From: Candidatus Yanofskybacteria bacterium CG10_big_fil_rev_8_21_14_0_10_36_16
GTDB lineage: Bacteria; Patescibacteriota; Minisyncoccia; 2-02-FULL-40-12; IGHO2-01-FULL-4-A
NCBI GenBank assembly: GCA_002794035.1
Contig: PCXQ01000004.1
Span: 187,064-251,063, forward strand
Direction: 5' to 3'
DNA length: 64,000 nucleotides
The notes beneath the pieces are model-generated. The model did not search any database. It saw nothing but the letters and a program-made list of their open reading frames with translations, and was not told where the DNA came from. Positions 34,558 to 52,872 of this stretch are shown in pieces (the first letter of the stretch is position 1; every line of letters starts with the position of its first letter). Both the position numbers and the translations under genes were made by a program.

Positions 34558-34632
34558 TGGCTCCGGGAGCAGGACTCGAACCTGCAACCATCTCCTTAAC
34601 AGGGAGCCGCTCTACCATTGAGCTATCCCGGA
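34558..34632 (-). tRNA. tRNA-Asn (anticodon GTT), CCA encoded
   Basis: Minus strand: TCCGGGA-TA-GCTC-AATGGT-AGAGC-G-GCTCC-CTGTTAA-GGAGA-TGGTT-GCAGG-TTCGAGT-CCTGC-TCCCGGA-G-CCA. Confidence 0.85.
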
Positions 34633-34868
34633 ATGTTGTTATCTAGCCATTTTCTACCTTGGCCAGACTTCAAAAAACGTTCTCTCGTTATCGCTTCTTT
34701 TTTAGTATTGAATTCTTCTGAGTGAATTAGTACGAATGGGCCATTTGACCTAGTCCATCTGTTACTACCAGCATTATGCTCCTTTAATCTATTAAAAACA
34801 TTTTTTGAAGTTTGACCAATATATCTCTTATTATTTTTGTTACTTCTCAATACGTAAACATAAAACAT
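34623..34868 (-). CDS. GIY-YIG nuclease family protein (YhbQ/UPF0213-type, Slx1-like)
   Basis: MFYVYVLRSNKNNKRYIGQTSKNVFNRLKEHNAGS matches the YhbQ GIY-YIG pattern. The last codons and stop (TAG) lie inside the tRNA-Asn 5' end. Confidence 0.75.
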   Translation of the reverse strand: MFYVYVLRSNKNNKRYIGQTSKNVFNRLKEHNAGSNRWTRSNGPFVLIHSEEFNTKKEAITRERFLKSGQGRKWLDNNIPG

Positions 34869-34869
34869 A

Positions 34870-35065
34870 AAATTACCATTGTCAGCCAGAGGCTGATCAG
34901 CCTACGGCTGAAGCTATCCCGGAATGAATTGTTAAACATTTATCCGGCCAATGGTAGAGCAGCGAACTGATCCACCATTGAGTCCCGACGTTTTAGTCGG
35001 GATCCTCGATTTTGTAATCCTGCTAAAGCAGGAAACAAATATCGGGACCATCCCGGAATGTTTCC
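34870..35065 (-). repeat. Scrambled tRNA-Asn 5'-end fragments (three copies of CATTCCGGGAT..., an inverted duplicate of the D-arm, and palindromic hairpins)
   Basis: Minus-strand reads CATTCCGGGATGGTCCCGAT, CAATGGTGGA..GCTCTACCATTG, and CATTCCGGGATAGCT-[TCAGCCGTAGGCTGATCAGCCTCTGGCTGA]-CAATGGTA directly upstream of the GIY-YIG ATG. Confidence 0.6.
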
Positions 35066-35167
35066 ATATTTAATTGTACGTCTATTCTAACAAAAATTAC
35101 GATATTTGCAAACCAAATCAATGTTTTTTTAGAAATAAAAAACCTGCAAATGCAGGATTTTTATAGT

Positions 35168-37351
35168 TTAAAACTCTAAAAGCTTACTTAAACCAGAAAC
35201 AATTTTACCAACCGTAGGGAGATAAAGCTCTTCAAGCTCTGGTGAAAATGGTACTGGCGTGTCTTCAGCTGCAATCAATACAACTGGTGCATCCAAATCC
35301 TCAAAAGACTCTTCGCTAATTCTACTCACTATCGTTTGGCCAAAACAACCAGTTTTAGATGCTTCGCATGTTACCAAAACTCTGCTAGTTTTTTTGATTG
35401 ACTCAGAAATGCATTCAAAATCAACAGGAATTAAAGATCTCAAATCTATAATCTCTATTGTCTTGCCTGTTTCGGCTTCCACTCGCTTAACCGCTTCAAT
35501 AGCTCTAAACATCTGAGAGCCATAACTAATAACAGTTGCATCTACCCCCTCTTTTAAAATTCTAGCCCTACCAAAAGGAACAGTATAATCGCCTTCAGGA
35601 ACTGGGGTGTTGAGCTCGGGAGGAATCATGCCGGATTCCGGATTTAAATTATAAATCCCCTTATATTCTACAAAAATTACAGGACTGTCATCTAATATAG
35701 CAGAATTTAGCAAACCCCTTGCATCAAATGATGTTATGGGAGCAACAATCTTAAAACCCGGCGTAGAGGCAAACCATGATTCTGGGTGAGCACTATGAAA
35801 AGAAGATGAGCCCTTGGTCCAGCCAGAAGGCATCCGGAAAACAATTGGCATTGGACCGAAACCTCTAGCAATCTGATTGGCTACAAAATTTACCATAATC
35901 ATAAAAGCAGATGATGAAAAATCAGCAAATTCAAATTCAACAATAGGTCTGAGATTTAAATAAGTAGATCCCACAGCCATTCCAACTATTCCTGATTCAG
36001 CTAAGGGCATATCAATTACACGCCTTTGATAAATTTTGTTAATTTTATAAAAATCTTCTGGCCATTCAATATTATCAAAAATACGAGAAAGTCCTTCTGT
36101 AACCTTAAATGCACCACCACTTAATCCAATGTCTTCTCCTAGAAGAATCACATTGGGGTCTTTTGTCATTCTTGTTATTAATGCTCCCCTGATTGCTTCA
36201 CGGTATGTAATTAAATCTCCATTGTTTGGAGGTAAAACAATTTCATTTTCGTGAACAATCTCAGGCATAAAAATAGACCTCCTGATATCTTTCACTTTTG
36301 GTCCAGAGCATTTTTCAGATCGCGCCAAATCTTCTTTAACAGTTTGTTCTGCCCTTTCTTCAATTTGATCAAGAGTCTTATCATCAACTTGGAATTCATC
36401 GGTAAGACGTTTTAACAAAGCATCAACAGGATCCTTTTTTCTCCACTTCTCTAGCATTTCTTCTGGCACATATTTGTGACTATCAGCAAGTGAATGTCCC
36501 GCCATTCTCATGGTTTTTGCAACAATAATAGAGATGATTTTTTCATTTCTTGCACGATCAAGAGCCCTAGAAACAGTGTTATAAACCATACCAACATTCG
36601 TACCATCAATTAAAAATCCTTCCACATTTCTGCCATAACCCAAAGCCCTGAGAGCTAAAGTTGGAGACCTAAATTCAAAAAAGTTAGGAGTACCAAATGC
36701 CCATTGATTGTTTTCGATTACAACAACCATAGGCAACTCTTTTACAGCTGCAATATTCAATGCTTCATGCACAATACCAATACTAGTTGCTCCATCTCCT
36801 AAAAAAGCCAGTACAGCATCCTCGGAATTGTGAAAATTTATTCCAAAAGCACAACCTGAAGCAATTGGCAACATTATGCCCAAGTGGCTAACAAAAGGAA
36901 TTATTCTTTTTTCAAAATCTCCAAAATGGAGGCTAGCATCCCAACCATGAGTAGGGCCATCTTTTTTTGCACAGATCTGGCACATTATTTCGTAAGGTGT
37001 TAGTCCGCGGACCAAATGAGTGCCTAGGTCCCGAATGGCTGGTGCAAACCAATCTTCTTTTTTGAGTGCATAACCAGCACCAACAGCAGTTGCTTCATTT
37101 CCTAAACTTGAAAGATGCTTGCCCAATGCCTTACCTTTTTTGATCAAAAGTTTAATTTCTCTCTCTGTCTTTCTGGTAAGATGCATATAGTAATACAATT
37201 CTTTATACAGTTCCCTTAAATCACATTGAGATTCAGTAACAACTTGAGATTCTATACCCTCAGCAGATATACGATAAACAACATCGTTTAAATCTTTAAA
37301 AGGATCAATCTTCTCTAATTTTCTATACATTTCTGCAAAATATCTGGGCAT
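35168..37351 (-). CDS. 2-oxoacid dehydrogenase E1 component, fused alpha-beta subunits (TPP-dependent)
   Basis: N-terminal half carries the E1-alpha TPP motif (LGDGATSIGIVHEALNIAAV...ENNQWAFGT). C-terminal half is transketolase-like E1-beta. 727 aa. Confidence 0.8.
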   Translation of the reverse strand: MPRYFAEMYRKLEKIDPFKDLNDVVYRISAEGIESQVVTESQCDLRELYKELYYYMHLTRKTEREIKLLIKKGKALGKHLSSLGNEATAVGAGYALKKEDWFAPAIRDLGTHLVRGLTPYEIMCQICAKKDGPTHGWDASLHFGDFEKRIIPFVSHLGIMLPIASGCAFGINFHNSEDAVLAFLGDGATSIGIVHEALNIAAVKELPMVVVIENNQWAFGTPNFFEFRSPTLALRALGYGRNVEGFLIDGTNVGMVYNTVSRALDRARNEKIISIIVAKTMRMAGHSLADSHKYVPEEMLEKWRKKDPVDALLKRLTDEFQVDDKTLDQIEERAEQTVKEDLARSEKCSGPKVKDIRRSIFMPEIVHENEIVLPPNNGDLITYREAIRGALITRMTKDPNVILLGEDIGLSGGAFKVTEGLSRIFDNIEWPEDFYKINKIYQRRVIDMPLAESGIVGMAVGSTYLNLRPIVEFEFADFSSSAFMIMVNFVANQIARGFGPMPIVFRMPSGWTKGSSSFHSAHPESWFASTPGFKIVAPITSFDARGLLNSAILDDSPVIFVEYKGIYNLNPESGMIPPELNTPVPEGDYTVPFGRARILKEGVDATVISYGSQMFRAIEAVKRVEAETGKTIEIIDLRSLIPVDFECISESIKKTSRVLVTCEASKTGCFGQTIVSRISEESFEDLDAPVVLIAAEDTPVPFSPELEELYLPTVGKIVSGLSKLLEF

Positions 37352-37457
37352 TTTTAACCTCCCTCAGAAGATAAACTGGTTCAAATTTACCCCATCTTAT
37401 CAAAAAAGTAAATATGTAATTACTAAGCACAGCCACTAAGCTTCCGGGCAAAAAATA

Positions 37458-38894
37458 TTGTTCTATGCTATTATTTATGTAATGGATAATTACCCCAAAC
37501 TACAAGAAAAAGAATTGCCCAAACCGCCTCACTGGACTAAGGCCATAGGCGTTGGTGTCGTTGTAACAGGTCTTGCAATAGGAACAGGAGAACTCATTTT
37601 GTGGCCACACCTAATAACAAAACATGGCCTTTCTCTTTTGTGGTTGGCTCTTATCGGAATAACCTGCCAATATTTTATAAACAGAGAAGTTGCGCGCCAC
37701 GAAGTAGCTACAGGCGAAAGCTTCTTCACTACTTCAGCTCGGATCATTCAGTGGTCTGTATTTTTTTGGCTTTTTTCAGCTATTGCACTTTATATCTGGC
37801 CGGGCTGGGCCTCAGCCATTGCTACAACACTAAAAGAGCTCTTTGGATTTGGGAGCCACCTTGGATGGTCATGGGCAACACTAGCTTTAGTTTTGGTACT
37901 AACTTTTAGCGGAAAAGTGGCATATAGCATGCTTGAAAAATCACTAAAGATAACTGTGCCGACATTCTTTGTACTTTTGTTAGTTATCAGTTATTTGAAT
38001 TTATCATGGGGAGAAATTAAAACAGCATTAGCTGGGGTAGTTGCTTTTGGCACGATACCTGAAGGCGTTGATATAAACGTCCTACTGGGCGCTATTGTTT
38101 TTGCAGGTGCAGGAGGAATGCTTAACCTGACAGTATCTTTGTGGTACAGAGACAAACAAGTAGGCATGGGAAATTATATAGGCCGTGTTGTTAACCCAAT
38201 AACAGGCAAAAAAGAAGCTGTTACAGCAACAGGTTTTAAATTTGACACAAACAATAAAGCAAACATGCAAAACTGGCGAGGTTGGATGAGATACGTAATG
38301 ATAGACCAAGGATTAATATTCTTATGTCTTGGATTTGTAACCTTGTTCCTACTTAGCGTAAATGCACACTCGGTTCTCTCCCCTATGGGACTAGTGCCTG
38401 AAGGTCTTGAAATAGCTGTTGTCCAAGCAAATATTTTTGGAAACATATGGGGACCAATAGGATTTAAATTGTTCCTTGTTATGGCGTTCTTGATGTTATT
38501 CTCTGTAATGTGGACCGTAATAGATGCTTTAACAAGAATGGTATCAGATATTATTTACACCAACGCAAGAGAAGGCAAATACAAAGGAGTGTTTAGGGTA
38601 TTTAACAAATTCTCCATAGGACAGCTTTATTATGGAGTTATAGTAATCGTAGCTATCATTGGGGCTTTTCTTATACCGCTAAAACAACCCCTTACACTTT
38701 TAGTAATATCGGGAGTTTTATCTGGTCTAACCATGGCTATTTATACTCCATTCCTTATATACATAAACAACAAACACTTACCTAAACCACTAAGACCTTC
38801 GTGGTTTACAAATGTTGCCATGAGTGGAATTTCAGTTTTCTTCATGTACTTTGCTTATAAAGTTATCGTTGATGCATTTACTAAAATAATATGA
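37458..38894 (+). CDS. NRAMP-family-like membrane transporter (probable divalent metal transporter)
   Basis: 11-12 TM. The HGLSLLWLALIGI..EVARHEVATGESF segment resembles the NRAMP FGYSLLWVLLLSN..LAARLGIVTGKDL region. Confidence 0.45.
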   Translation: MFYAIIYVMDNYPKLQEKELPKPPHWTKAIGVGVVVTGLAIGTGELILWPHLITKHGLSLLWLALIGITCQYFINREVARHEVATGESFFTTSARIIQWSVFFWLFSAIALYIWPGWASAIATTLKELFGFGSHLGWSWATLALVLVLTFSGKVAYSMLEKSLKITVPTFFVLLLVISYLNLSWGEIKTALAGVVAFGTIPEGVDINVLLGAIVFAGAGGMLNLTVSLWYRDKQVGMGNYIGRVVNPITGKKEAVTATGFKFDTNNKANMQNWRGWMRYVMIDQGLIFLCLGFVTLFLLSVNAHSVLSPMGLVPEGLEIAVVQANIFGNIWGPIGFKLFLVMAFLMLFSVMWTVIDALTRMVSDIIYTNAREGKYKGVFRVFNKFSIGQLYYGVIVIVAIIGAFLIPLKQPLTLLVISGVLSGLTMAIYTPFLIYINNKHLPKPLRPSWFTNVAMSGISVFFMYFAYKVIVDAFTKII

Positions 38895-39538
38895 TAAGCG
38901 ATGCAGTAGGGTTAATTTTAATATTTGGCATATCAGCAGGCACGATTGTCTGGAGATGGTATTTTGGCAGGAAAAATAAAATTTCATTAAGAACCGATAT
39001 TTTTATCGGTATTTTTATTATTTTACTTACCGCTCTGCTTTTATTATTAATGGGACGACTGCCTTGGTGTGCATGCAATCAAATATGGATTTGGTCAGGC
39101 GATGTTTTTTCCGAACATAACTCACAGCACATTACAGATCCCTATTCCCCTACTCACTTTATACACGGCATACTTTTTTACTTATTGCTTTGGGTATTCG
39201 CTAGACGAATCCCCATAGGAGTAAGGTTGCTTATGGCCATAGCTCTTGAGTCAGCATGGGAAGTAATTGAAAACACAGACGCAGTTATTGAATATTATAG
39301 AGCAAACACAATATCTCTTGGTTATTATGGTGACAGTGTTATTAATTCCATTTCCGATATTGTCGTTATGGCCATAGGTTTTGTTTTTTCTTGGAAAGTC
39401 CCCACCTGGGTTTCTGTCTTAGTACTGGTTGTTATAGAAGTATTTTTGGCATTTTGGATAAAAGACAATCTTACTTTAAATATAATAATGTTTATTCATC
39501 CATTTGAAGCCATAAAAAACTGGCAATTAGGAATGTAA
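38891..39538 (+). CDS. Hypothetical multi-TM membrane protein
   Basis: ORF overlaps the upstream stop (ATGA). 5-6 TM. Confidence 0.4.
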   Translation: MISDAVGLILIFGISAGTIVWRWYFGRKNKISLRTDIFIGIFIILLTALLLLLMGRLPWCACNQIWIWSGDVFSEHNSQHITDPYSPTHFIHGILFYLLLWVFARRIPIGVRLLMAIALESAWEVIENTDAVIEYYRANTISLGYYGDSVINSISDIVVMAIGFVFSWKVPTWVSVLVLVVIEVFLAFWIKDNLTLNIIMFIHPFEAIKNWQLGM

Positions 39539-39577
39539 CTTTTGTAAAAATATAATTTACATGTAATAATTTAAAAA

Positions 39578-40117
39578 ATGATAGAAGAAAAAAATAAAAA
39601 TCAAACAGTTGTTTTTGGCGGAGGGTGTTTTTGGTGTACAGAAGCAATTTTTAAATCATTAAAGGGAGTTATTTCAGTTTTGCCCGGGTACGCAGGAGGT
39701 ACCACAGACAACCCTACATACGAAGATGTATGTACCGGTATCACAGGTCATGCCGAAGTAATAAAAATAGAATATAATCCTGAAACTATATCATTTGATG
39801 ATCTTTTAACGGTTTTCTTCTCTACGCATGATCCTACAACCCCAAACCGGCAAGGTGCTGATGTGGGAACACAATATCGATCAGCTATTTTTTATACAAC
39901 AGGCGAACAAAAAGAAGAATCGGAAAAATTTATTGAAAAATTAAATGAATCAGGTCCAAAAATAGTAACGGAAATCACGAAACTAGATAAATTTTTTGAA
40001 GCAGAAGATTATCACAAAGATTATTACTCAAAAAACACTTCAGATTCTTATTGCCAAGTTGTAATAAATCCCAAACTTGAAAAACTCAAAAAACGATTTT
40101 CCGAATTATTGAAATAA
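39578..40117 (+). CDS. msrA: Peptide methionine sulfoxide reductase MsrA
   Basis: Active-site GGGCFWC plus the conserved core GYAGGTTDNPTYEDVCTGITGHAEVIKIEY. Confidence 0.9.
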   Translation: MIEEKNKNQTVVFGGGCFWCTEAIFKSLKGVISVLPGYAGGTTDNPTYEDVCTGITGHAEVIKIEYNPETISFDDLLTVFFSTHDPTTPNRQGADVGTQYRSAIFYTTGEQKEESEKFIEKLNESGPKIVTEITKLDKFFEAEDYHKDYYSKNTSDSYCQVVINPKLEKLKKRFSELLK

Positions 40118-40118
40118 A

Positions 40119-40152
40119 ATACCACCCCGCCTTAGCGGGGTGGTATTTTTTA
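40119..40152. terminator. Bidirectional intrinsic terminator (ACCACCCCGCC-TTA-GCGGGGTGGT + TTTTTT)
   Basis: Perfect hairpin with flanking A/T runs. Confidence 0.75.
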
Positions 40153-40177
40153 TTGTGTTACTTGCCTAAAATAATTG

Positions 40178-42157
40178 TTATTTCAGTGCAGTCACATGAA
40201 CAGGACTTGAAGTTGTACGGTTGCCAGAAGTATCCTCTGCAACTGCTGTTAATGTATATGTTGTATTGGGCTTGCCTGGAACGCTCCAGCTGCAAGCATA
40301 GTTTACAGTAACATCCGTACAGACAAGACTACCATCAACATAAAACTCTACTCTCGATACTCCAACATCATCTGTGGCGTCCGCATTTATTACTAGAGTT
40401 TGTCTTCTGGGAACACCTGCGCCATCTGTAGGATATGTTATTGATACACTAGGAGGCGTTATGTCTTGTGAGGGTGTTGGAGTTGGAGTGGGAGATGGGG
40501 TCGGCGTAGGCGTGGGGGTAGGTGTTGGGGTTGGATCAATAGAAAATTCATAAGCTCCAATTTCGGGCGCACCGCCTTGCGGAACCATCACACCATTAAT
40601 ATCAGCATTTAAACCGACATAAACACCTGAATCAATTGAAGACGAAGTGCTCTGCAAAGTAAAGTCACCTGCTGGTGCGTTTACGAACTGAGGATCTTCA
40701 GCAATGTTATTGTCGGGATTGCCGGAAGAATTTAGATTGCTGATAAGTTGGGACATGGTCCAATCTATGGTGTTGGAATGAAAAACATAGCCGGAGTCGC
40801 TACGGTAGTAGGTATTGTTTGTTGTCACATATTCCGCTGTACCATTAGTGTGATAAAAATCTTCCTCTAAATTCTCAGCAAAAATGTTGTTCTTGATTAC
40901 TATTGCTCCATTAAAAGCATTGTCATTGTATTCAAGTTTGATACCCTTGCCATTATTGCCATAAGAGACGTTGTTTAAAACATTTACCCCCGTTCCAAAA
41001 CCTAGATATTCAACCTCTATACCAGCTATACCATTACCATAAGAAACATTGTAATAAACCTCAACATTTTGAAAAGCATTGATATTACTGATAACAATTC
41101 CCCAATCCCCATTATTGCGGGAGATATTGTACCTGAAAGTTCCACCATCAGAAAGGTATGTATGGAATCCTGCTCTAAGATTGTCTTCAAAAACAGAATT
41201 CTCTATTAACCAGTTGCCAGCTGCGTAACCGCCATAATTTCCAGCGTAAATTCCATGGGATCGAGGATCTCCATTGGAATCAACATAGCCATTGTTCTTC
41301 ACTAAAACATTCTGAATTACCGCATTGTCACTGGTAAAGATAATACCATTTCCCCCAGCCTTGATAGTTGTAAGGTTTTTCAAAGTAACATTGTCTGCTC
41401 CGTTGTGAAGGAGTATATTCCCATCACCATTTGTTTTTGTCACATCTATACTATCAACAACTATATAGTCAGCTCCACTGACATAGATAGCACGATCGCG
41501 TAGCGGTACCTCAATACCCGGATTTGTATAATACTGATTTGGGTCTGAAGGAGAGTAAACATATAGAGTTGAAAGTTCCCACACCCACTGACCGTCAGCT
41601 ACCAATTCTCCAAGAGTAGTTTTTTCTACACCTCGTATGCCATTTACAAAAATTTGTCTTGGGTCACTAGACCAAGGTACATACCAAACATTTTGCAAGC
41701 CAGGATACTGAGTCCAAGTTGGAATAAATTCAGAACCGTCTATAAGAGGATTAGCTCCGCTACCATAAGCTCCATAAGTTATTGGACTTGAGGATGTCCC
41801 GCTTGTGATGACATCCAATTGCTCTTTCCATGTCTCTCCTCTTTTGAAAAACACAGAATCACCAGGAGCAAGAGCTTGCGACTCTACCCTAGCAATAGTC
41901 TTCCATGGACTAGATGCAGATGTACCTGAATTTGAGTCATTGCCGGCTGTTGAATCAACATAATAAGAATTGCCAGCAGCTGAGCTCACGTTTGTTTTAA
42001 ACAAATGCGCATTCATAAAAACACCCACTGGAATTATAATACCGAGGGTGGAAACCAAAAGAATTGTTTTAATTTTTAAAACAAATTCCCCTGCCTGAGG
42101 ATTTTTGTCCTCATTAATATTTAAATCTTGATTCATTTTTTGAATCTGTAAACTCAT
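40178..42157 (-). CDS. Secreted right-handed beta-helix (pectate-lyase-fold) protein with (PT)n linker and C-terminal Ig-like domain
   Basis: Parallel beta-helix repeats (NNGYVDSNG, GIYAGNYGGYAAGNWLIENSVFEDN...), PTPTPTPTPTPSPTPTPTPS linker, Big-like C-terminus. Confidence 0.55.
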   Translation of the reverse strand: MSLQIQKMNQDLNINEDKNPQAGEFVLKIKTILLVSTLGIIIPVGVFMNAHLFKTNVSSAAGNSYYVDSTAGNDSNSGTSASSPWKTIARVESQALAPGDSVFFKRGETWKEQLDVITSGTSSSPITYGAYGSGANPLIDGSEFIPTWTQYPGLQNVWYVPWSSDPRQIFVNGIRGVEKTTLGELVADGQWVWELSTLYVYSPSDPNQYYTNPGIEVPLRDRAIYVSGADYIVVDSIDVTKTNGDGNILLHNGADNVTLKNLTTIKAGGNGIIFTSDNAVIQNVLVKNNGYVDSNGDPRSHGIYAGNYGGYAAGNWLIENSVFEDNLRAGFHTYLSDGGTFRYNISRNNGDWGIVISNINAFQNVEVYYNVSYGNGIAGIEVEYLGFGTGVNVLNNVSYGNNGKGIKLEYNDNAFNGAIVIKNNIFAENLEEDFYHTNGTAEYVTTNNTYYRSDSGYVFHSNTIDWTMSQLISNLNSSGNPDNNIAEDPQFVNAPAGDFTLQSTSSSIDSGVYVGLNADINGVMVPQGGAPEIGAYEFSIDPTPTPTPTPTPTPSPTPTPTPSQDITPPSVSITYPTDGAGVPRRQTLVINADATDDVGVSRVEFYVDGSLVCTDVTVNYACSWSVPGKPNTTYTLTAVAEDTSGNRTTSSPVHVTALK

Positions 42158-42321
42158 AAAAATAAAGAGGAGTAAATCTTAAATCAAACATATTTAAGGA
42201 GATATTTATTCCGCGACCTTCTATAAGTTTATATTAAAAATTTTAAAAATAACACCTTTTTAGAATACCTGTTTTTTTTATAAATTACAATGAAAAATCA
42301 TGCGCCACCAAAAAAGCCCGG

Positions 42322-42366
42322 TTGAATCCCAACCACTTAGGTCGGAATCAACCGGGCCTTGCTTGC
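42322..42366 (-). terminator. GC-rich intrinsic terminator belonging to the high-GC gene (GCCCGGTTGA...TCAACCGGGC + TTTTTTGG on the minus strand)
   Basis: 10-bp GC stem and U-run immediately 3' of the stop at 42383. Confidence 0.65.
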
Positions 42367-42382
42367 CGTCGAGATGACGGCG

Positions 42383-43039
42383 TCAAAGGTTTTTTTCTAG
42401 GAACTTGCGGACACTCTTTATGACGTTGTCCGCCGCTCCCTTGAATGTGTACCCGTCCTCCTGGATTTTGACCAAGGGCTTCCACTCGCCGTCGGGCGAC
42501 TTTGCCATCACGGCGACCTGGAGGTTCTTCTTTAGCTCCTTGGACTTGTGGTTCATGAAGCTCCCATTTCGTTCCTCCATGCCCCGGCCGACAACCACGA
42601 CCTTGTACTGGGCCTGGTCTTCGTCAGGGACAACCTGGAATTCCTTGCCCGCCCTCTTGGCGAGATCCGATGCACTGTCTTCCCAGTCTTGAACCGGGAA
42701 TCCGTCGTCCAAGCCGGCCTCGAAGAACACGGGGTATCCGCCAGCGGAATTCTTGTCTCCCCCGCCGAAAGGCGAAGTGAACATCTTGCCGACCTTCTTT
42801 GCTGGCGCCATCGCCTTTGCGGCGAGGCTGGTATCGTCGGATTCTTCGGAGGCTTCCGCCGGCTGGGCGGGAGCCGCCTGCTCCATCTCTTCGATCTCGG
42901 CCTTAGTGTAGCCCGCCTTGGCGAGCTCCAGCTTCTCCTCGACGGTGAGCGTGGCCGCGTCGGCCGTCGCCACTGCGAAGAAAATGGCTACCACGATGCT
43001 CAACACTGTGTTGAACTTCATCTCAGTCTTCCACTCCAT
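42383..43039 (-). CDS. High-GC secreted hypothetical protein (compositionally foreign gene)
   Basis: ~58-60% GC by eye with GC3-rich codons against a ~33-35% GC background. Signal peptide MKFNTVLSIVVAIFFAVATADA; the start may be the internal Met. Confidence 0.5.
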   Translation of the reverse strand: MEWKTEMKFNTVLSIVVAIFFAVATADAATLTVEEKLELAKAGYTKAEIEEMEQAAPAQPAEASEESDDTSLAAKAMAPAKKVGKMFTSPFGGGDKNSAGGYPVFFEAGLDDGFPVQDWEDSASDLAKRAGKEFQVVPDEDQAQYKVVVVGRGMEERNGSFMNHKSKELKKNLQVAVMAKSPDGEWKPLVKIQEDGYTFKGAADNVIKSVRKFLEKNL

Positions 43040-43424
43040 GTCTAAGGGTTGATTTGAGGTACCTGCATTAGATACCTGTAAAGTACTATATTATTAATAC
43101 TAACACATATTTAAAGCTAAGTCAAATGTTCGTTTTTTTAAAGACTTGTTGATAATATTAAACATAAATAATGTTACAATTAATATATAATTAATCATTG
43201 TCAATATTTTTGGTAGTATTTACCCTATCAAAGCATTACATAGGACTTACGCGTTTGGATAAGTTCAAGGCAAAATGGCTAAGAAATGGCGAGTCGTACT
43301 GAAGTACGATAAGTTTTTTCTTAGCCATTTTAACGTAGAAATTAGCCAAACCCACGTGGCTTGAACAGGACAAGCCCAGCATTTTAGGGCTTCCTGTGAA
43401 AGCGCGTAAGTTCTAATTTATTAA

Positions 43425-43928
43425 ATGAAAACATCTCACGTATGGATAATCGTAATAGTCGTCGCATTCTTTGGTCTTGTTTGGAGCCTTTCAAAAGATA
43501 GGGCGCCATCAGAAGAACCAAACGCAGAAGGAGAGGAACAAACCCAAATGGAGCAAAAAATGGAAGAAACCAAAGCTACTACAGTTAAAACTAGTACTGA
43601 AACAAACATAAATAAACCCCTTCTTGAATCAGGAACCGCAGAAGACACTGCAAGATACTCTCAACTAGTAAAGGAATATGAAACCAGAAGAGTTCAGTTT
43701 GATGCAAATTGCCGAGTAAATAGCCCGAACAGCACATTCAAAAACAACACAGCAGTTATGTTCGATAACAGATCAGCTGATACAAAAATCATTACAGTTG
43801 GAGGCGTAGATTACAACTTCCCTGCTTATGGTTATAAAATAATAAATATTGCAGGCATTGATTTACCCGCAAATGTTTCAATAGATTGCAATGGTGTGGT
43901 AGTTGAAACATTTTTGATTCAAAAATAA
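43425..43928 (+). CDS. Hypothetical secreted protein
   Basis: Signal peptide/TM (VWIIVIVVAFFGLVWSL). No recognised domain. Confidence 0.4.
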   Translation: MKTSHVWIIVIVVAFFGLVWSLSKDRAPSEEPNAEGEEQTQMEQKMEETKATTVKTSTETNINKPLLESGTAEDTARYSQLVKEYETRRVQFDANCRVNSPNSTFKNNTAVMFDNRSADTKIITVGGVDYNFPAYGYKIINIAGIDLPANVSIDCNGVVVETFLIQK

Positions 43929-44299
43929 CAAATTCATCAAAATTTGCGTTTTGGATTAATATATGTTAGGATAAAGGTATTATCAGGTACAAAAGATACA
44001 AAACAAAAGCCCCGCAAATAGAAGAATCGGATTTAACGACCCCTGAATTTAAGGAAAAATACAACGAAAACATACCCCCTGAAACAACCCCGGTATCAAT
44101 CAAAGCATTGAATCAATTCCGCAAAAAACATCCTCATCTTTTCAAGCAAAGCAACTGGTCCATAGACAAACACCGCAAAAGAGTTATGGATTGGATATTC
44201 TCAAACGAAGTTTAAATAAAACCCCTATAGGGGTTTTATTGTACTCAAAAATAAAAAATGATTTAATTAATTATATATAAGAAATTATAAATAATTAAA

Positions 44300-44752
44300 A
44301 TGAAGATAATCAAACTTAACAACATTATTGGAACTTCCCAAGAGGCCAAGGTGCCGGGTGACCAAGGGTCAAGCAGGCGCCTGCTTTTGGCAAAAGATGG
44401 CTTGGGGTATTCATTTCATGACACAATTATTACTGCAGGAGCTGAAATGAGACTTCACTACACCAATCACATAGAAACAGTATATTGCGTTTCAGGAAAC
44501 GGCGAGGTTGAAGATCTAACCACCAAGAAACGTCACAAAATTGAAGAAGGTGTTATGTATGTTTTAGATAAACACGATGACCACATTTTACATGGTGGAA
44601 CTGAAGATATGCGCCTAATTTGCATATTTACCCCAGCTCTTGTAGGAAATGAGCGCCAAGACGAAAGCGGAAGCTTTCCCATAATGAATGAGGTCTTGCA
44701 GGAAATAAAACAAATTAAAGAAAAAGTTGAAAAAATTGAAGAACAACTTTAG
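44300..44752 (+). CDS. EctC-like cupin (ectoine synthase family), solitary
   Basis: LHYTNHIETVYCVSGNGEVEDL...GVMYVLDKHDDHILHGGTEDMRLICIFTPALVGNERQDESG parallels the EctC core. No ectA/ectB nearby. Confidence 0.6.
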   Translation: MKIIKLNNIIGTSQEAKVPGDQGSSRRLLLAKDGLGYSFHDTIITAGAEMRLHYTNHIETVYCVSGNGEVEDLTTKKRHKIEEGVMYVLDKHDDHILHGGTEDMRLICIFTPALVGNERQDESGSFPIMNEVLQEIKQIKEKVEKIEEQL

Positions 44753-44822
44753 CCTTACTTAATATTTAAAATATATTAAATCCACCCTAAGGTGGATTTA
44801 ATTTTTATTATAATTTTTAATA

Positions 44823-46127
44823 TTAATAACCACGTAGCTTTTCTATCTTATGATGCTGTCTTATTTTCTCAAGAGCTTTTGCCTCTATCTGTCTTATTCT
44901 TTCGCGGGTAACAGCAAAAACCTTTCCAACCTCTTCAAGGGTATGCCCGATACCATCAGCTAATCCAAATCTCATTTCTAAAATCTTCTGCTCCCTAGGA
45001 GTTAGATCATCTATTATGTCTTTCAATCTCTCGCGCAATATCCTTCTCCCTGCCGATGTTTCCGGGGATATTGTTTCATCATCTGCTACAAAATCCGCCA
45101 ATGAACTATCCTCATCATCTTCACCAACAGGCGCTTCAAGAGATACTGTATCTTGAGAAATTTTTATAATATGATGAATTTTCTCAACATCCATACCCAT
45201 TTCAGAAGCAATCTCATCAGGCAATGGCTCTCTACCAAGATCCTGCACTAAACGCCTGACCACCTGCTGATATTTGTTTATAGTTTCTACCATGTGCACA
45301 GGTATGCGAATAGTACGTGCTTGATCTGCTAAAGCTCGGGTAACTGCCTGCCGTATCCACCATGTTGCATATGTTGAGAATTTATAACCCTTTGTATAAT
45401 CAAATTTTTCCACCGCCCTAGAAAGGCCTATATTCCCTTCTTGTATTAAATCCAACAAGGTAAGATTTGGGGATCTTCCAACATATTTTTTAGCTATTGA
45501 AACAACCAGTCTGAGATTTGAAAGCATAAGCAATTGTCTGGCAGCTTCATCTCCGTTTTGTATCCTTTTGGCGAGATCAACCTCCTCGTCTCTTTTTAGC
45601 AATGGATAGTTGCCTATTTCTCTTAAATACATCTGAACAGAATCAGTACCACCTGCCTTATGAAGCTCTTTTTCTAACTTTCTTTTTTCTTCAAAATCTT
45701 TTACAGCTTCCTGCTTAAATACTTTGGAAGTATCTACGATGTTTATATTTGCTGCATCTAGATGGTCATAAAGAAGCTCAAGATCTTGTATATTTTTTTC
45801 TACATTAGGAAACTGATTCAATATCTCAGATTCAGTAATGAATCCTCTGTGGCGCCCCCTATCAATTAACTGCTGAATCTTTTCCTCTACAACATTTACC
45901 TTCTTAATCTTTGTTTTTGATTTAGTACTGCCTTTAGCAGAAGAGTTCCTCGAAGATCTAGTTTTTATATTTTCTTCTGAAGAGTGGGCTGTTTTTCTTT
46001 TGGTGGTTTTAGGAGAAGCGGTTTTTTTGTTTACTGCCTTTTTGGGCTTTGTTTTTGATTTGGTCTTATTGCCTGTTTTTTTACCGCCAAATTTATTATT
46101 ATTTTTTTTTGTTTGCTTTTTTGCCAT
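44823..46127 (-). CDS. rpoD: RNA polymerase sigma-70 factor RpoD with Lys-rich N-terminal extension
   Basis: Region 2-4 signatures ([37 protein letters not shown]; region 4 [25 protein letters not shown]). Confidence 0.9.
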
Positions 46128-46166
46128 AAAAATAACGCTTTGTTTTTTATAAAGCGCTTGCTGTTT

Positions 46167-47975
46167 TTATTTTAACTTTGCAAGTTCGCCGGATAATTCG
46201 GTAAACTTTGCCACTAATGATGTTAGTTGCTCTTTATTGCCTGTTTTTTCGGTTTCCCTAATCTCAAAGCTTAAATCCCCTAATTTTTTTTGAATATTTC
46301 TCAATTTCGCCTGATAAATAAGTTTAGCAAATTCTTCTTTTTTTGATTCATCACTGAAATCTTTCCATATCTCCTCAGCTCTAAAATGCAATAAATCAAC
46401 CTTTTTCTTTGTGTTTTCATTAGTATTTTCTTTACCGGATTTATTGTTTAGATAGTCTAATAATTCTATTAATTCATTAGACCAGAAATCATGTTTAAAA
46501 TCAACCCCCCTTATCAACTCCGGACTTAAACAGACAAGCTCAGCGATACTTTGTTCATAATGCTTAAACTTACCAATATCGCCTGTTTCTTCAGATCCTT
46601 CGTCATCATATTCATAATTTGCAGACGTTTCAGAAAATACAGGCTCTGCTATATTGTTTAATTCATTATAAATCAAATCTTCTTTGGTCTTAACCTTTAA
46701 TGCAAGCTCCGCCACCCAGTGAGCCTGCTCCACCTTGCTACTTATAGATTTTATAATGGGCAAAAGTTTTTGAGTAACCATCTTTTTGCCAAGAGCAGTT
46801 GCGGTATCGGCACCAGTTGTTACTTTTTTAAAGAAATACTCCATAAACGGTTTTGATTTTGAAGAATATTCTTCCCATTTTGAACCGTAAGCCTTAACAT
46901 AATCAGAAGGATCTTTTAATTTGGGATCGTCTATCGAAATGACTCCAACATTAAAATTCTGGGCAAGAGCAAGATCGACACCTCTTTGTGTTGCGATCTC
47001 CCCCGCCGCATCCTCATCAAAACAAAGATCTAAATTGTCAGTATAACGCTTTATAATTTTTAAATGACTAGCAGTTAAAGCAGTACCTGATGTGGCCACG
47101 GCATTACCAACGCCAGCTTGGTGAGACATCACAACGTCCATATTTCCCTCAACTGCCAAGCATTTATCCTTGCTTCTTATTTCCATTCGCGCCTTATCTA
47201 AGCCGTAAAGCAATCTGCTTTTGTCATATATTGGGGTTTGAGGTGTGTTTATATACTTGGCCACAGCTTCACCGCCAGAGGTGGGTCCACCTCCAACATC
47301 AAAAATCCTACCAGAAAATCCCACAACCTGACCGCTTAAATTAGTTACAGGAAACATGATCCTATTTCTAAATCTATCATAAATACCACTCCCAGACCCT
47401 CCACCTTGCCCATCAACATTTCTTTTAATGCCCATGCCTGATTTTGAAATCTCTTCCTCAGAATATCCTCGTGTTTTTGCAAAATTACTAAAAGAAGACC
47501 AATCATCAGGAGCAAATCCCAAACGAAAATTTTTAATTGACTCGTCAGTCGTTCCCCTTTCGTGTAGATACTTCAAAACATTCTTTCCTGTGTTTGAATG
47601 CCAAAGTTGTTTTTCAAAAAATTTAGTTGCTAATTCAGATATCTCAAAAAGTATTGTTTTTTCAGATTGAAATTCCTTATATTCCGGTGTTGACTGCTTA
47701 AGTTCAACCCCAGCTTTTGTGGCAAGCATTTTTAATACTTCAGGGAACTCTAACCCCTCAATTTCCTGAACAAAGGTAAACATATCCCCGCCCTTTGAAC
47801 ACCCGAAGCAATGAAATATTTGCCTTTCTGGGTTAACAAAAAACGAGGGGGTTTTCTCGTTATGAAACGGGCATTGTGCCTTATAGTTAATGCCTGACTT
47901 GTTAAGCTTTACATAGCCACCTATCACATCAACGATATCGAGGCGATCTTTAATTTTTGACACATTATCTTCCAT
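46167..47975 (-). CDS. dnaG: DNA primase DnaG
   Basis: Zinc-binding CPFHNEKTPSFFV...FHCFGCSKGGD, TOPRIM (VEGNMDVV). Confidence 0.9.
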   Translation of the reverse strand: MEDNVSKIKDRLDIVDVIGGYVKLNKSGINYKAQCPFHNEKTPSFFVNPERQIFHCFGCSKGGDMFTFVQEIEGLEFPEVLKMLATKAGVELKQSTPEYKEFQSEKTILFEISELATKFFEKQLWHSNTGKNVLKYLHERGTTDESIKNFRLGFAPDDWSSFSNFAKTRGYSEEEISKSGMGIKRNVDGQGGGSGSGIYDRFRNRIMFPVTNLSGQVVGFSGRIFDVGGGPTSGGEAVAKYINTPQTPIYDKSRLLYGLDKARMEIRSKDKCLAVEGNMDVVMSHQAGVGNAVATSGTALTASHLKIIKRYTDNLDLCFDEDAAGEIATQRGVDLALAQNFNVGVISIDDPKLKDPSDYVKAYGSKWEEYSSKSKPFMEYFFKKVTTGADTATALGKKMVTQKLLPIIKSISSKVEQAHWVAELALKVKTKEDLIYNELNNIAEPVFSETSANYEYDDEGSEETGDIGKFKHYEQSIAELVCLSPELIRGVDFKHDFWSNELIELLDYLNNKSGKENTNENTKKKVDLLHFRAEEIWKDFSDESKKEEFAKLIYQAKLRNIQKKLGDLSFEIRETEKTGNKEQLTSLVAKFTELSGELAKLK

Positions 47976-48178
47976 ATGATTTACAGAAATTAATCCTGAA
48001 CAAAGCCGAATGGGTTAATTTTTGACACACTATCTTTCGCACAAGCAATATTTAATAGTTATTACTATACAATAACCAAAATATCAAAAACACTAGACAT
48101 TTACCAGTTTATATTTTACAAGTTAATTATTTTGTGATATAGTATAAATAGCGATATTGAAAATAAAAGGAGAAGAAA

Positions 48179-48397
48179 ATGAGATATCCAGAATTTAAAC
48201 CATTACCTTTGCATGTAGTCATTATATGCATATTAATACCGGAATTTATTTTCATCTTAGATAAAGAAATAGAACCCTGGATGCTCTTGGCAGGCTTTTT
48301 AGGAGGTTTATCTTTTTATTATTTTATACTTTTACCTATTTTAAAATTTATTGATGGCTTGTCAGCAAAAGCATACAATAAAATATTTTCCCATTAA
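48179..48397 (+). CDS. Small hypothetical membrane protein
   Basis: 72 aa, 2 TM. Terminator hairpin follows at 48402-48426. Confidence 0.3.
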   Translation: MRYPEFKPLPLHVVIICILIPEFIFILDKEIEPWMLLAGFLGGLSFYYFILLPILKFIDGLSAKAYNKIFSH

Positions 48398-48470
48398 TAG
48401 TAAGCCCGCTTCAGCGGGCTTTTTTGTTATACGGCGAGCCATGTACCAAAAACTCTAAATAAAAATTTTA

Positions 48471-49943
48471 TTATTCTGGAAGTTTTTCTTTGATTTGTGA
48501 TTTCTTAGGTTTTTGTTGGCTTAGCCATTCCCTGATAAATAGTGTGGCTCTCACATCATCTTCGTTGTATTTGAGAATTTTATCTTTTAATTTTTTATCC
48601 TTATTATTAAGCCAATCATTATACCAAACAACCGACTCCGCTCCCCCAGCATCTTCCGCTTCCCAATCAAAACCTAAATAACGGGCAACATCTTTTAAAC
48701 TATAAAAATACAACGGCAAAACAACGGAACGCGTCAATATTAAATGCAAATCAAATGCATTATCTTTGAATTTTTTTTCAAGATCCCGAGAAATGCCATA
48801 CCTTGCTGCAAACTTATTAAATACCTGCATCTCATAACTTGAATAATAATAAACAACAAAATCATCAAGTTCTTCCAAATATTTTAGAAAATCCTCCCAC
48901 ATTCTTTTTTGATCATCTTTGCTGTCAGCCCAAAAATATTTGTATTCAGTCTTATTGCCTGTTTTTTGTAAGAATCCCCACAAATAATCAATATCGACAG
49001 TAGGGTCTGATTCAATATCAAAATGTATCTCGTTTTTTACTTCGGGAAATTCTGATTTTTGAACAACATAAAATTCATTGCTAATTAAAGCATTGGCCTG
49101 ACTTTGGAAACGCATAATCTTATCAAAATTCCAAAAAGTTAAATCACGCTGCAAATCATTTACATCAGTATTTGCAAGATCCCGAACTGTTTTTATGCCT
49201 ATATCATAAAGCTGGCGCTGATCTGACTGGCTTATTCTATAAACCAGTGAAACATCATCACAGTCCTTAGCTTCTGATTCACAAAGAGCATACCATGGAG
49301 AACGCTTGCAGCCACTCTTCAAGAAAGGAGCGGGTTTTTCACCATTAAGTATTTTTTCAATTTCAGTAAGTGACATCTTAAACTGATCAACAAAATCATC
49401 AACCAAAAATGACCTCTCCTCCCCTTCTGCATTAATAATGTAGGCATCTCTGGGTCTTACACCTTGAATACGCTCAAGTATTAAACTATAAAATACAAGC
49501 TGAAATTTATATTCTGTTCTTACTTCTGGACCAAGTTTTACATCATAAACCACATAATAATGATCTCCGAAGTTAGACTTAACATTTCGTCCTAACTCTG
49601 ACGTAGGACGTGCCTCCAAAAGATCGGGCATACCAACCCAATCCTCATCCATTAACACGCCATGATAAATATTCTTACCCTCTTTCATTAGTTCTACAGT
49701 GGCCAAGAAAGCCTCGTCGAGATCTTTTAACAAAGAAGGGTCAATTTCTTCAAATTTTTTCGAATTTATAAGTTCCTTTTCGTGATTTAAACCTCCCTTG
49801 TGGATCATATCAATCAAAGGGGGTGTTTCCTTTGTCTTCTTAAGTTCACTATAAATATCGTACCAAATCCAATGGGGGCACTGAAAAAACTTATAAAAAT
49901 GTTCTCCAGTAATAACAAATTTTTTATCTTTAGATTTTATCAT
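48471..49943 (-). CDS. RecB-family PD-(D/E)xK nuclease fused to an RNase H-like domain (TM0106/DUF2779-like)
   Basis: N-terminal CPxxxW (FQCPHWIWYD). PD-(D/E)xK motifs GMPDLL and VVYDVKLG. C-terminal HFDIESDP...YLWGF RNase H-fold-like. Confidence 0.45.
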   Translation of the reverse strand: MIKSKDKKFVITGEHFYKFFQCPHWIWYDIYSELKKTKETPPLIDMIHKGGLNHEKELINSKKFEEIDPSLLKDLDEAFLATVELMKEGKNIYHGVLMDEDWVGMPDLLEARPTSELGRNVKSNFGDHYYVVYDVKLGPEVRTEYKFQLVFYSLILERIQGVRPRDAYIINAEGEERSFLVDDFVDQFKMSLTEIEKILNGEKPAPFLKSGCKRSPWYALCESEAKDCDDVSLVYRISQSDQRQLYDIGIKTVRDLANTDVNDLQRDLTFWNFDKIMRFQSQANALISNEFYVVQKSEFPEVKNEIHFDIESDPTVDIDYLWGFLQKTGNKTEYKYFWADSKDDQKRMWEDFLKYLEELDDFVVYYYSSYEMQVFNKFAARYGISRDLEKKFKDNAFDLHLILTRSVVLPLYFYSLKDVARYLGFDWEAEDAGGAESVVWYNDWLNNKDKKLKDKILKYNEDDVRATLFIREWLSQQKPKKSQIKEKLPE

Positions 49944-50048
49944 TATATTAATCGTATTATAAAAACAAATAAAATAAAAGTTGATTTTTTTACCAAAATA
50001 ATAAAAATCCGCATTTTTACGGATTTTTATTATTTTTATATTTTATAA

Positions 50049-50774
50049 TTACTGATTTTCAGGCAACTCAACACTTAATACTTCATCTCCTTTTTCTATT
50101 GATCTAACTAAGTCCATACCATTTGTAACCTTGCCGAAAACCGTGTGAAGACCATTAAGATGTGGCTGATCTTTTATTGTTACAATGAAGAACTGGCTGC
50201 CGTTTGTATTCGGACCCGCATTAGCCATAGCGATTGAACCAACGGTAACAGGCAAAGATTCAAGATCATAATCATACTCATACCCCTTAGCTTCGAGTTG
50301 TGAAATTTGAGAGTCAGACAATCCAAATCCAGGTGATTTTGGATTTATCTCATCTTCAAAAGCATAACCGGGACCACCTGTTCCATCATTAGAAGGATCA
50401 GTATCTTTAGAAAGAGGGTCGCCTCCTTGAATCATAAAGTCAGAGATAACTCTGTGAAACTTTGTACCATCATAAAATCCCTGGCCAGCAAGCAACATAA
50501 AGTTGCCCACGGTTTTTGGTGCAATTGTTGGATAAAGTTCAAGTTCTATATCTCCCTTGGTGGTATTTAAAACTACTCTTACTTTATCGGGTAAATTTTC
50601 CTCGGTAACTGTTTCAATATCTCCGTTTTTATCTTCCATTTTTTCATCTATTTGGGCCACGGAACCGTCGTCATTTAAAGCAATTTCCTCTGATCTTTCG
50701 GAAAAAAACAAAAAATACCCGCCAACGACAGCTAAGACAGCCAAAAATATGGTTAAATATCCAAATTTAGTCAT
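50049..50774 (-). CDS. ppiB: Cyclophilin-type peptidyl-prolyl cis-trans isomerase, membrane-anchored
   Basis: N-terminal TM. FHRVISDFMIQGGDP...GGPGYAFEDE cyclophilin core. Confidence 0.85.
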   Translation of the reverse strand: MTKFGYLTIFLAVLAVVGGYFLFFSERSEEIALNDDGSVAQIDEKMEDKNGDIETVTEENLPDKVRVVLNTTKGDIELELYPTIAPKTVGNFMLLAGQGFYDGTKFHRVISDFMIQGGDPLSKDTDPSNDGTGGPGYAFEDEINPKSPGFGLSDSQISQLEAKGYEYDYDLESLPVTVGSIAMANAGPNTNGSQFFIVTIKDQPHLNGLHTVFGKVTNGMDLVRSIEKGDEVLSVELPENQ

Positions 50775-50849
50775 AAATATTAATTATCAAGTATGAATGC
50801 AATACGCAAATAGACATACTTGAATAATTGTTTTATTTTAATAAACCTT

Positions 50850-51464
50850 TTATTTTCTAAGATATTTTTTAATGGGCAATAAAAAAATAGTGCCCAATAC
50901 AGAAAAGAAAACCATAGAAATAATCAAAAAATTAAAACCTATTGATATTGCAATGAATCCACCTATAGCAGCTAGGGTAGCACTGGATAAATCAGTAAGT
51001 GTAAAATACACTCCCCATTCTGTACCCTCCTTGTGATTATCAATATGTCTGGTAAAAATTGCCACATAAGAAGGAAAGGTCATGGCTGTAAAAAACCCCA
51101 AAACAAACTGTATAATATAAAGCTGCCATGGCAAATTTATAACAAGATACAAAAGAGGAATTACCGACATCACAACACTTCCCCAAAATAAGAACATAAA
51201 ATCATCCTTTTCTCCTTTGATTTTATCAATAAATGCAGCAAGGGGTATTTGCAAGGTACTTTTGGTAAATAAATATACAGCAACTGAAACACCGACAACA
51301 GCAGCGTTACCCCCAATAATAAAATCTTCTATAAAAATAGCAAAAACTGGAGAAAAAAGACCCGCCGCTCCAACAAGTATCACATCGGATACAATAAGCA
51401 ACCTAATAACAAAATTTATATCTTTTAAAAAGTAATGTTTTAACGCTAATATTTTTTTGTCCAT
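50850..51464 (-). CDS. Hypothetical 6-TM membrane protein (MFS-half-like)
   Basis: 204 aa, ~6 TM. Confidence 0.35.
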   Translation of the reverse strand: MDKKILALKHYFLKDINFVIRLLIVSDVILVGAAGLFSPVFAIFIEDFIIGGNAAVVGVSVAVYLFTKSTLQIPLAAFIDKIKGEKDDFMFLFWGSVVMSVIPLLYLVINLPWQLYIIQFVLGFFTAMTFPSYVAIFTRHIDNHKEGTEWGVYFTLTDLSSATLAAIGGFIAISIGFNFLIISMVFFSVLGTIFLLPIKKYLRK

Positions 51465-52855: not shown

Positions 52856-52872
52856 TATATAAAAGATTAAAT

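Follow-up and report, generated by a model that had tools for sequence, protein, structure and literature searches.

Here we describe a gene of apparently foreign origin in the genome of Candidatus Yanofskybacteria bacterium CG10_big_fil_rev_8_21_14_0_10_36_16, a member of the Candidate Phyla Radiation (CPR). The stretch of DNA analysed, referred to below as the window, comprises 64,000 nt of contig PCXQ01000004.1 (positions 187,064 to 251,063). It contains a compositional island of about 765 bp (42302-43066, no strand assigned), delimited by sliding guanine-plus-cytosine (GC) content and by segmentation, and composed of a single open reading frame (ORF) together with its terminator and a short leader at the 5' end. 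With considerable confidence, we take this island to carry a real, horizontally acquired, protein-coding gene. Its product is predicted, from sequence and structural models, to be exported and to belong to an undescribed family whose fold resembles that of LptE.

Composition, coding status and reproducibility of the island

The GC content of the whole window is 37.1%, with a standard deviation (SD) of 4.7% among 300-bp windows, and that of the DNA outside the island is 36.9%. A preliminary description, made from the letters of the sequence, had reported a GC-rich insert at 42322-43045, and sliding GC analysis finds it in that place: the interval has 58.1% GC and the ORF within it (42383-43039) 58.4%. 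The region of about 42302-43066 has 58-59% GC, with a peak 300-bp window of 64% (z = 6.4), and is the sole long stretch above 50% GC in the window, save for a short stretch near tRNA-Leu at the window start. The background of 33% GC given in the preliminary description has to be corrected to about 37%, with only 21-28% GC in the intergenic DNA immediately adjoining the island. That composition switches within a few bases on both sides holds for the left edge, which maximum-likelihood two-state segmentation places sharply at 42302 (support 42296-42318); the right edge is softer (42971-43078) because the codons of the signal peptide are less GC-rich.

The gene lies on the minus strand at 42383-43039 and encodes 218 aa from the ATG at 43039, as described earlier and as recovered in the ORF list; codon-position GC and hhalign support the same frame. 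The JGI and ENA records call this ORF from the ATG at 43021, giving 212 aa, and the NCBI record of the protein is PJE51141.1 (COV29_02610), Candidatus Yanofskybacteria bacterium. GC at the first, second and third codon positions (GC1, GC2 and GC3) of the 218-aa ORF is 0.60, 0.38 and 0.78, a gene-like pattern seen in that frame only; a GC1 above GC2 and a GC3 far above GC2 are normal for a gene of a GC-rich genome. The GC3 of 0.78 compares with 0.313 +/- 0.048 (maximum 0.455) in the remaining 47 window ORFs that are 120 aa or longer, RpoD, DnaG and GlyRS among them (z = 9.9). Synonymous codon choice is the opposite of that of the host, with AAG at 92% (host 28%), TTC at 100% (21%), GAC at 86% (25%) and GTC at 47% (8%), and codons ending in G (AAG, GAG, CAG, GCG) are enriched alongside those ending in C. 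The statement that GC3-rich codons set this gene apart from every other gene in the window is therefore sound. The stop-free run of 231 codons was matched by 17 of 2000 composition-matched shuffles. ORFs on the opposite strand (e.g. 42548-43045) have an atypical position-specific GC pattern and no independent support; together with the homology of the minus-strand frame, this agrees with their earlier dismissal as artefacts. Taken with its protein homologues and the lack of any Rfam match, the GC periodicity and open-frame length identify the island ORF as protein-coding.

The gene also has the GC-rich intrinsic terminator of its own that had been noticed at the outset. An inverted-repeat and terminator scan located it on the minus strand at 42310-42360, with a 21-bp GC-rich stem (42313-42360), a 5-nt loop and a following U6 tract; the RNA fold has a predicted energy of -46.7 kcal/mol (z = -5.75), and none of 200 shuffles was equally stable. 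A second small hairpin (42365-42381, minus strand) lies directly past the stop codon. Like the gene, the non-coding terminator and 3' untranslated region (UTR) are rich in GC.

The exact protein is on record on three contigs: a 288-kb NCBI contig, a 252-kb JGI contig and a 39.9-kb ENA contig assembled with MEGAHIT. The ENA contig, k141_997620 (L001), matches the window over 34558-53021 with a single mismatch in 18,464 bases, at 39216 and so outside the island, and holds the identical island together with both junctions. Directly 3' of tRNA-Asn(GTT) (window 34558-34632, minus strand, and leftwards; L001 18465-18675) the two sequences become wholly different. On the window side the DNA past the tRNA gene encodes a 206-aa protein without a Pfam match and a SHOCT-domain protein, after which come the genes for methylmalonyl-CoA mutase and MeaB; the 3' end of a tRNA gene is a classic spot for the integration of strain-specific islands. 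As L001 is near-identical to the window yet diverges at tRNA-Asn, it represents an independent assembly from a slightly different population. No repeats able to mislead an assembler were found at the junctions.

The predicted protein and its family

The protein begins with a predicted signal peptide of the Sec/signal peptidase I type (42956-43021, minus strand; residues 7-28, MKFNTVLSIVVAIFFAVATADA) with an A-x-A motif, the cleavage site being judged by eye. Its Kyte-Doolittle hydrophobicity reaches a maximum of 2.73 centred on residue 19, and AlphaFold2 (AF2) models a helix at residues 10-23. With a predicted isoelectric point of 4.9, these features agree with the preliminary account of a secreted, acidic protein. 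There is no lipobox, and cysteine is absent from the entire 218-aa protein, which rules out a lipoprotein.

Three further segments follow on the minus strand. A short helical hairpin at 42872-42952 (residues 30-56, LTVEEKLELAKAGYTKAEIEEME) is modelled as helices 33-41 and 46-55, with predicted local distance difference test (pLDDT) scores of 85-91; alignments place a related hairpin motif in the homologues P0003, P0008 and P0009, with two copies in P0003 and P0008. An acidic Ala/Pro-rich linker at 42788-42871 (residues about 57-84) is predicted to be disordered, with pLDDT of 36-56 and no secondary structure. The C-terminal alpha/beta domain at 42386-42787 (residues about 85-218) forms the conserved core of the family and is modelled with pLDDT above 90 in a fold like that of LptE, PelC, CsgG and the TolB N-terminal domain. 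This model was built by AF2 from a 44-sequence alignment and was used instead of the single-sequence model, which reached a pLDDT of 46.

Close relatives are absent from the collections searched: among 15 billion proteins the only one more than 40% identical to the query is the query itself, and a word-seeded search of 5.8 billion proteins likewise returned the protein alone. With phmmer, nine further proteins (E 3e-9 to 5e-4) were retrieved from 1.84 billion cluster representatives. Eight of the nine align to residues of about 65-218 with 28-39% identity, and P0005 matches the low-complexity linker only. A profile built from the phmmer matches retrieves 55 proteins, most of them secreted and about 153 aa long; one member is annotated to a metagenome-assembled genome (MAG) of Pyrinomonadaceae (Acidobacteriota). 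Aligned with hhalign to the family profile constructed without it, the query scores a probability of 99.3% (E = 1.5e-20, 208 columns). Motifs shared in the family (the query, P0003, P0008, P0006, P0010 and others) include EDSxxDL, F-VV, EAD..VV..R and WKP. The full architecture, namely a signal peptide, a helical motif of the type xTxEExxxMxxaGxSxxxI, a KVGxxFxxPFG linker and the C-terminal domain, is found in P0003 and P0008, and the signal peptides of the members inspected are also free of cysteine.

Scans of the protein against Pfam, NCBIfam, PHROGs and PADLOC returned nothing significant, and none of 44 family members has a Pfam match, so the family is undescribed. The earlier statement that the protein has no recognisable domain stands for Pfam and NCBIfam and fails in so far as the family is detectable and the fold recognisable. 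A sequence-profile search of the PDB gave only insignificant matches, to SSB and none to LptE, and structural comparison with BFVD gave nothing significant; in a Foldseek search against the PDB the top 27 matches are nearly all LptE/RlpB-type lipoproteins (E from 4e-5).

The fold of LptE, PelC, CsgG, LpoB and the TolB N-terminal domain is that of a cell-envelope scaffold which binds envelope polymers or partner proteins. Because of this role elsewhere, the protein would most likely be a binding or scaffold module beyond the cytoplasmic membrane, an envelope-binding function that we put forward tentatively and consider somewhat doubtful. Its suggested role as a surface or host-interaction factor is speculation.

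Origin, insertion site and alternative explanations

Of the two origins first proposed, recent horizontal transfer is the one supported, by the un-ameliorated composition and by relatives that are confined to other genomes, where their loci have 42-58% GC. The third codon positions are still donor-biased, which makes the event a recent one when measured against base-composition drift. Regressions by Lawrence and Ochman reportedly relate codon-position GC to the genome GC of a gene's source; by these, a GC3 of 78% would correspond to a donor of about 65% GC and the GC1 to about 53%, figures that for a single gene are indicative only. Amelioration would make the GC3-derived figure the lower of the two; here it is the higher, and nothing points to decay towards the host GC3 of 31%.

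All homologues, which are overall 24-39% identical to the query, lie on other contigs. In the family loci examined, the short-form members are compositionally at home, and the range of 42-58% GC agrees with a moderately GC-rich bacterium having passed the gene to the 37%-GC CPR genome. The donor was probably a family-carrying bacterium of roughly 58-65% GC, for example one like the Acidobacteriota. Phyletic incongruence is seen in that homologues, a minority of them with a known taxonomy, occur on other contigs and none in related CPR loci. The search for a donor lineage yielded a distant family (24-39% identity) and no named donor, since nothing lies between about 40% and 100% identity in the collections searched. 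Among relatives syntenic for DnaG-RpoD, four (L011, L012, L015 and L019, Paceibacteria/Yanofskybacteria) have 42-58% GC, some of them 54-58%, and this wide range within the clade makes a GC-rich CPR donor possible. Horizontal transfer is frequent in Patescibacteria, where it has been reported to make up as much as 13% of genome length; most of it takes place between members of the phylum, and most is not recent (PMC12455944).

The insertion lies in a 1.27-kb gap between the gene for a beta-helix/Big_7 surface protein (40178-42157) and that for a 167-aa secreted-looking protein (43425-43928). The neighbouring genes encode the beta-helix/Big_7 protein, the 167-aa protein (without a family match), an EctC-like protein, MsrA and RpoD. 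In 31 related CPR loci (L005-L035) only the DnaG-RpoD segment is syntenic and everything beyond RpoD differs; with synteny lost at that point, the region is accessory. The gene was not found in any of these 31 loci, which are anchored on DnaG-RpoD and distant. Searches of metagenome contigs with the flanks (the 167-aa protein and a 34-nt flank of p659, the beta-helix/Big_7 gene) returned nothing, the collection apparently being without this organism.

Two observations concern genes of the same surroundings. The EctC-like gene (44300-44752, plus strand) encodes a stand-alone ectoine-synthase-like cupin (Pfam Ectoine_synth, E 5e-46) without ectA or ectB neighbours, in the same non-syntenic region. 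The beta-helix/Big_7 gene p659 (40178-42157, minus strand) has a homologue with 75% amino acid identity (78% nt) at 8499-10385 of L087, from a 46%-GC organism in the same ENA sample, where it follows ClpP/NusA and has another beta-helix gene beside it; since the two copies each match their own genome in GC3, they are not recently related.

The likely course of events can be sketched as follows. A foreign fragment of about 0.77 kb, holding one complete gene with its own terminator, would have come from an unsampled organism of roughly 58-65% GC. It may have entered by DNA uptake followed by illegitimate recombination into the intergenic spacer, with surplus DNA trimmed later, the recipient site being a variable, surface-protein-rich part of the 37%-GC Candidatus Yanofskybacteria chromosome. 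Transcription would start in the upstream AT-rich, host-like DNA and stop at the imported hairpin. Translation probably starts at the ATG at 43021 (MKFNT...), which would give a canonical signal peptide, and the product would be exported via Sec to act as a binding or scaffolding module outside the cytoplasmic membrane.

A candidate sigma-70-like promoter (43097-43125, minus strand) was found by consensus scan in the AT-rich, host-like DNA about 58 nt upstream of the ATG at 43039. It consists of TTGACT, a 17-nt spacer and a TG-extended TAGTAT, with 9 of 12 positions matching. No Shine-Dalgarno motif was found upstream of the gene, which is uninformative because host genes mostly have none. Most window ORFs (e.g. 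11446-13188, 10041-11429 and 44300-44752) lack the motif and have very AT-rich leaders, often with TAATTAA-like strings, which suggests that translation in this organism may start independently of Shine-Dalgarno pairing. The foreign gene and the gene for the 167-aa protein are separated by a 385-bp AT-rich spacer, in which a stretch of about 40% GC (43236-43400) contains an inverted repeat with 29-nt arms (43272-43331; 79% complementary, 2-nt loop, no Rfam match). This repeat could act as a terminator in both directions, as an operator or as a small RNA.

Several points weigh against recent acquisition of a working gene. The best homologue is merely 31-39% identical, with no donor found, and for a truly recent transfer a closer public relative would be expected; none was found. 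No empty site is shown, the nearest GTDB genomes (58% DnaG identity) being too distant. No integrase, transposase, tRNA or significant flanking repeat was found at the island edges. Promoter-like sites number 3, compared with 2.4 in shuffles, and so are at chance level. Finally, the ENA and NCBI assemblies might share read sets.

It is unlikely, in our judgement, that the insertion is real but was dead on arrival, that is, neutral and unexpressed foreign DNA that awaits deletion and has no function in the CPR cell. The gene is known as a single sequence variant, so there is no signal of purifying selection; it is unique to its lineage, its codon usage is poorly matched to the host, and its start region offers no Shine-Dalgarno motif and a promoter match at chance level. 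Yet all 218 codons are intact, with a complete signal peptide and domain, and the insert has been trimmed to one gene and its terminator in a streamlined genome from which useless DNA should disappear. The host's own genes, too, mostly do without Shine-Dalgarno motifs, and two populations with differences elsewhere share an identical island.

Slightly less probable still is that the gene is a copy of a self-contained, moron-like single-gene cassette, an ORF with its own long GC-rich terminator, that moves between unrelated bacteria; its LptE-fold domain could then come from a diderm host or neighbour and might bind outer-membrane or lipopolysaccharide (LPS) components of that cell during attachment. 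The idea arises because the homologue P0008 likewise has an elevated GC3 and its own hairpin terminator; two cases are too few for a conclusion. Among the homologues with the full architecture, P0008 alone lies on a long contig (L002 6001-6900; ENA ERZ23486227 scaffold_1, 733 kb). Its GC3 is 0.65, compared with 0.38-0.45 in five of six neighbours and 0.59 in the sixth, and it is accompanied by a long GC-rich hairpin and a T-run. Beyond this lead, neither the mobile cassette nor a host-derived envelope-binding factor has support.

An assembly chimera or contamination, in which the assembler spliced DNA of a high-GC organism into the CPR contig, was the second origin first proposed. The source is a MAG, and at the left edge the composition does change within a few bases. 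Against this, two false joins 765 bp apart would have to frame exactly one ORF and its terminator within a spacer, and to do so twice, since the island and both junctions recur within 18.4 kb of matching DNA on the independent MEGAHIT contig, which differs from the window elsewhere. Both flanks belong to the same low-GC genome, the gene is also present on separate NCBI and JGI contigs, and the junctions are free of misleading repeats. On this sequence evidence an artefact appears very unlikely, with a small residual doubt, and the chimeric origin is not borne out.

A native gene whose GC-rich codons are kept by selection, such as translational selection under high expression, has an even slimmer chance. 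In some AT-rich genomes C-ending codons are favoured in highly expressed genes, and the gene is intact with a strong terminator. Its GC3, however, lies 10 SD from that of all 47 other ORFs, including RpoD, DnaG and GlyRS; the enrichment covers G-ending along with C-ending codons, the GC-richness extends to the non-coding terminator and 3' UTR, and no homologue was found in the other CPR sequence searched.

That the island is a structured non-coding RNA or tRNA-derived remnant with a fortuitous ORF is effectively refuted: RNA genes often account for GC-rich islands in AT-rich genomes and the hairpin had been called T-arm-like, but that likeness is unsupported, as ARAGORN finds no tRNA or tmRNA at the island and Rfam no match on 42150-43450 at the gathering threshold or even at E <= 1, and the sequence has strong three-base GC periodicity, significant protein homologues and a confidently folded AF2 domain.

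Three narrower proposals were rejected. A viral origin finds no significant PHROGs match, no relative on a viral contig and no BFVD match. For an integron cassette, the motifs run the wrong way round: whichever strand is read, GTT stands in the 5' arm of the hairpin and AAC in its 3' arm, opposite to attC (5'-RYYYAAC ... GTTRRRY-3'), and no IntI integrase is encoded among the neighbours. A 10-bp direct repeat, ACATATTTAA (42188 and 43105), was considered as a target-site duplication; about 0.6 such repeats are expected by chance, and it would enclose DNA of 21% GC.

Significance and comparison with known systems

The importance of the gene is modest, the event being of an ordinary type. It marks a variable, surface-protein region in a streamlined CPR genome and draws attention to a family of secreted proteins, so far unannotated, whose fold is like that of LptE. 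Should the donor have been the host of the CPR cell, the gene could mark the identity of that host and the biology of the interaction.

The closest structural parallel is LptE (RlpB; PDB 3bf2, 4rh8, 5ixm_B), the outer-membrane lipoprotein of the LptDE translocon for LPS, with which the query has a two-layer alpha/beta sandwich fold in common. Unlike LptE, the query has an extra helical hairpin and an acidic linker, has no lipobox or cysteine, and is only about 10% identical; neither the query (E <= 1) nor the 44 family members (E <= 0.01) match Pfam PF04390. No Lpt genes were seen in the 64-kb window, and CPR bacteria are generally described as lacking LPS and an outer membrane. PelC, the periplasmic domain of CsgG, the TolB N-terminal domain and LpoB belong to the same fold class. 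These are either lipoproteins or components of larger machines, with their genes in dedicated operons, whereas the query gene stands alone without such neighbours, with neither a pel or csg operon context nor lipidation.

In its organisation the island resembles phage morons, extra genes that have a promoter and terminator of their own and lie between phage genes; both are self-contained single-gene units with their own terminator and a deviant GC content, placed between unrelated genes. The likeness extends to the homologue P0008 in L002, GC-elevated and with its own long hairpin terminator. It differs from morons in lying outside a prophage, with cellular flanks (MsrA, RpoD, DnaG).

Compared with the transfers described in Patescibacteria, most of which stay inside the phylum and are not recent (PMC12455944), the present one is compositionally fresh and apparently had its source in another phylum or in a high-GC lineage. 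It is like un-ameliorated islands of the Lawrence-Ochman type, with which it shares an abrupt shift in GC and GC3, a non-syntenic accessory site and relatives in other lineages only. It departs from them in that its edges lack an integrase, a tRNA and repeats, in that no donor can be identified, and in comprising one gene only, cut nearly to the ORF and its terminator. The event is of the textbook kind, a foreign gene revealed by its GC content, and an unusually clean and compositionally fresh single-gene case of it.

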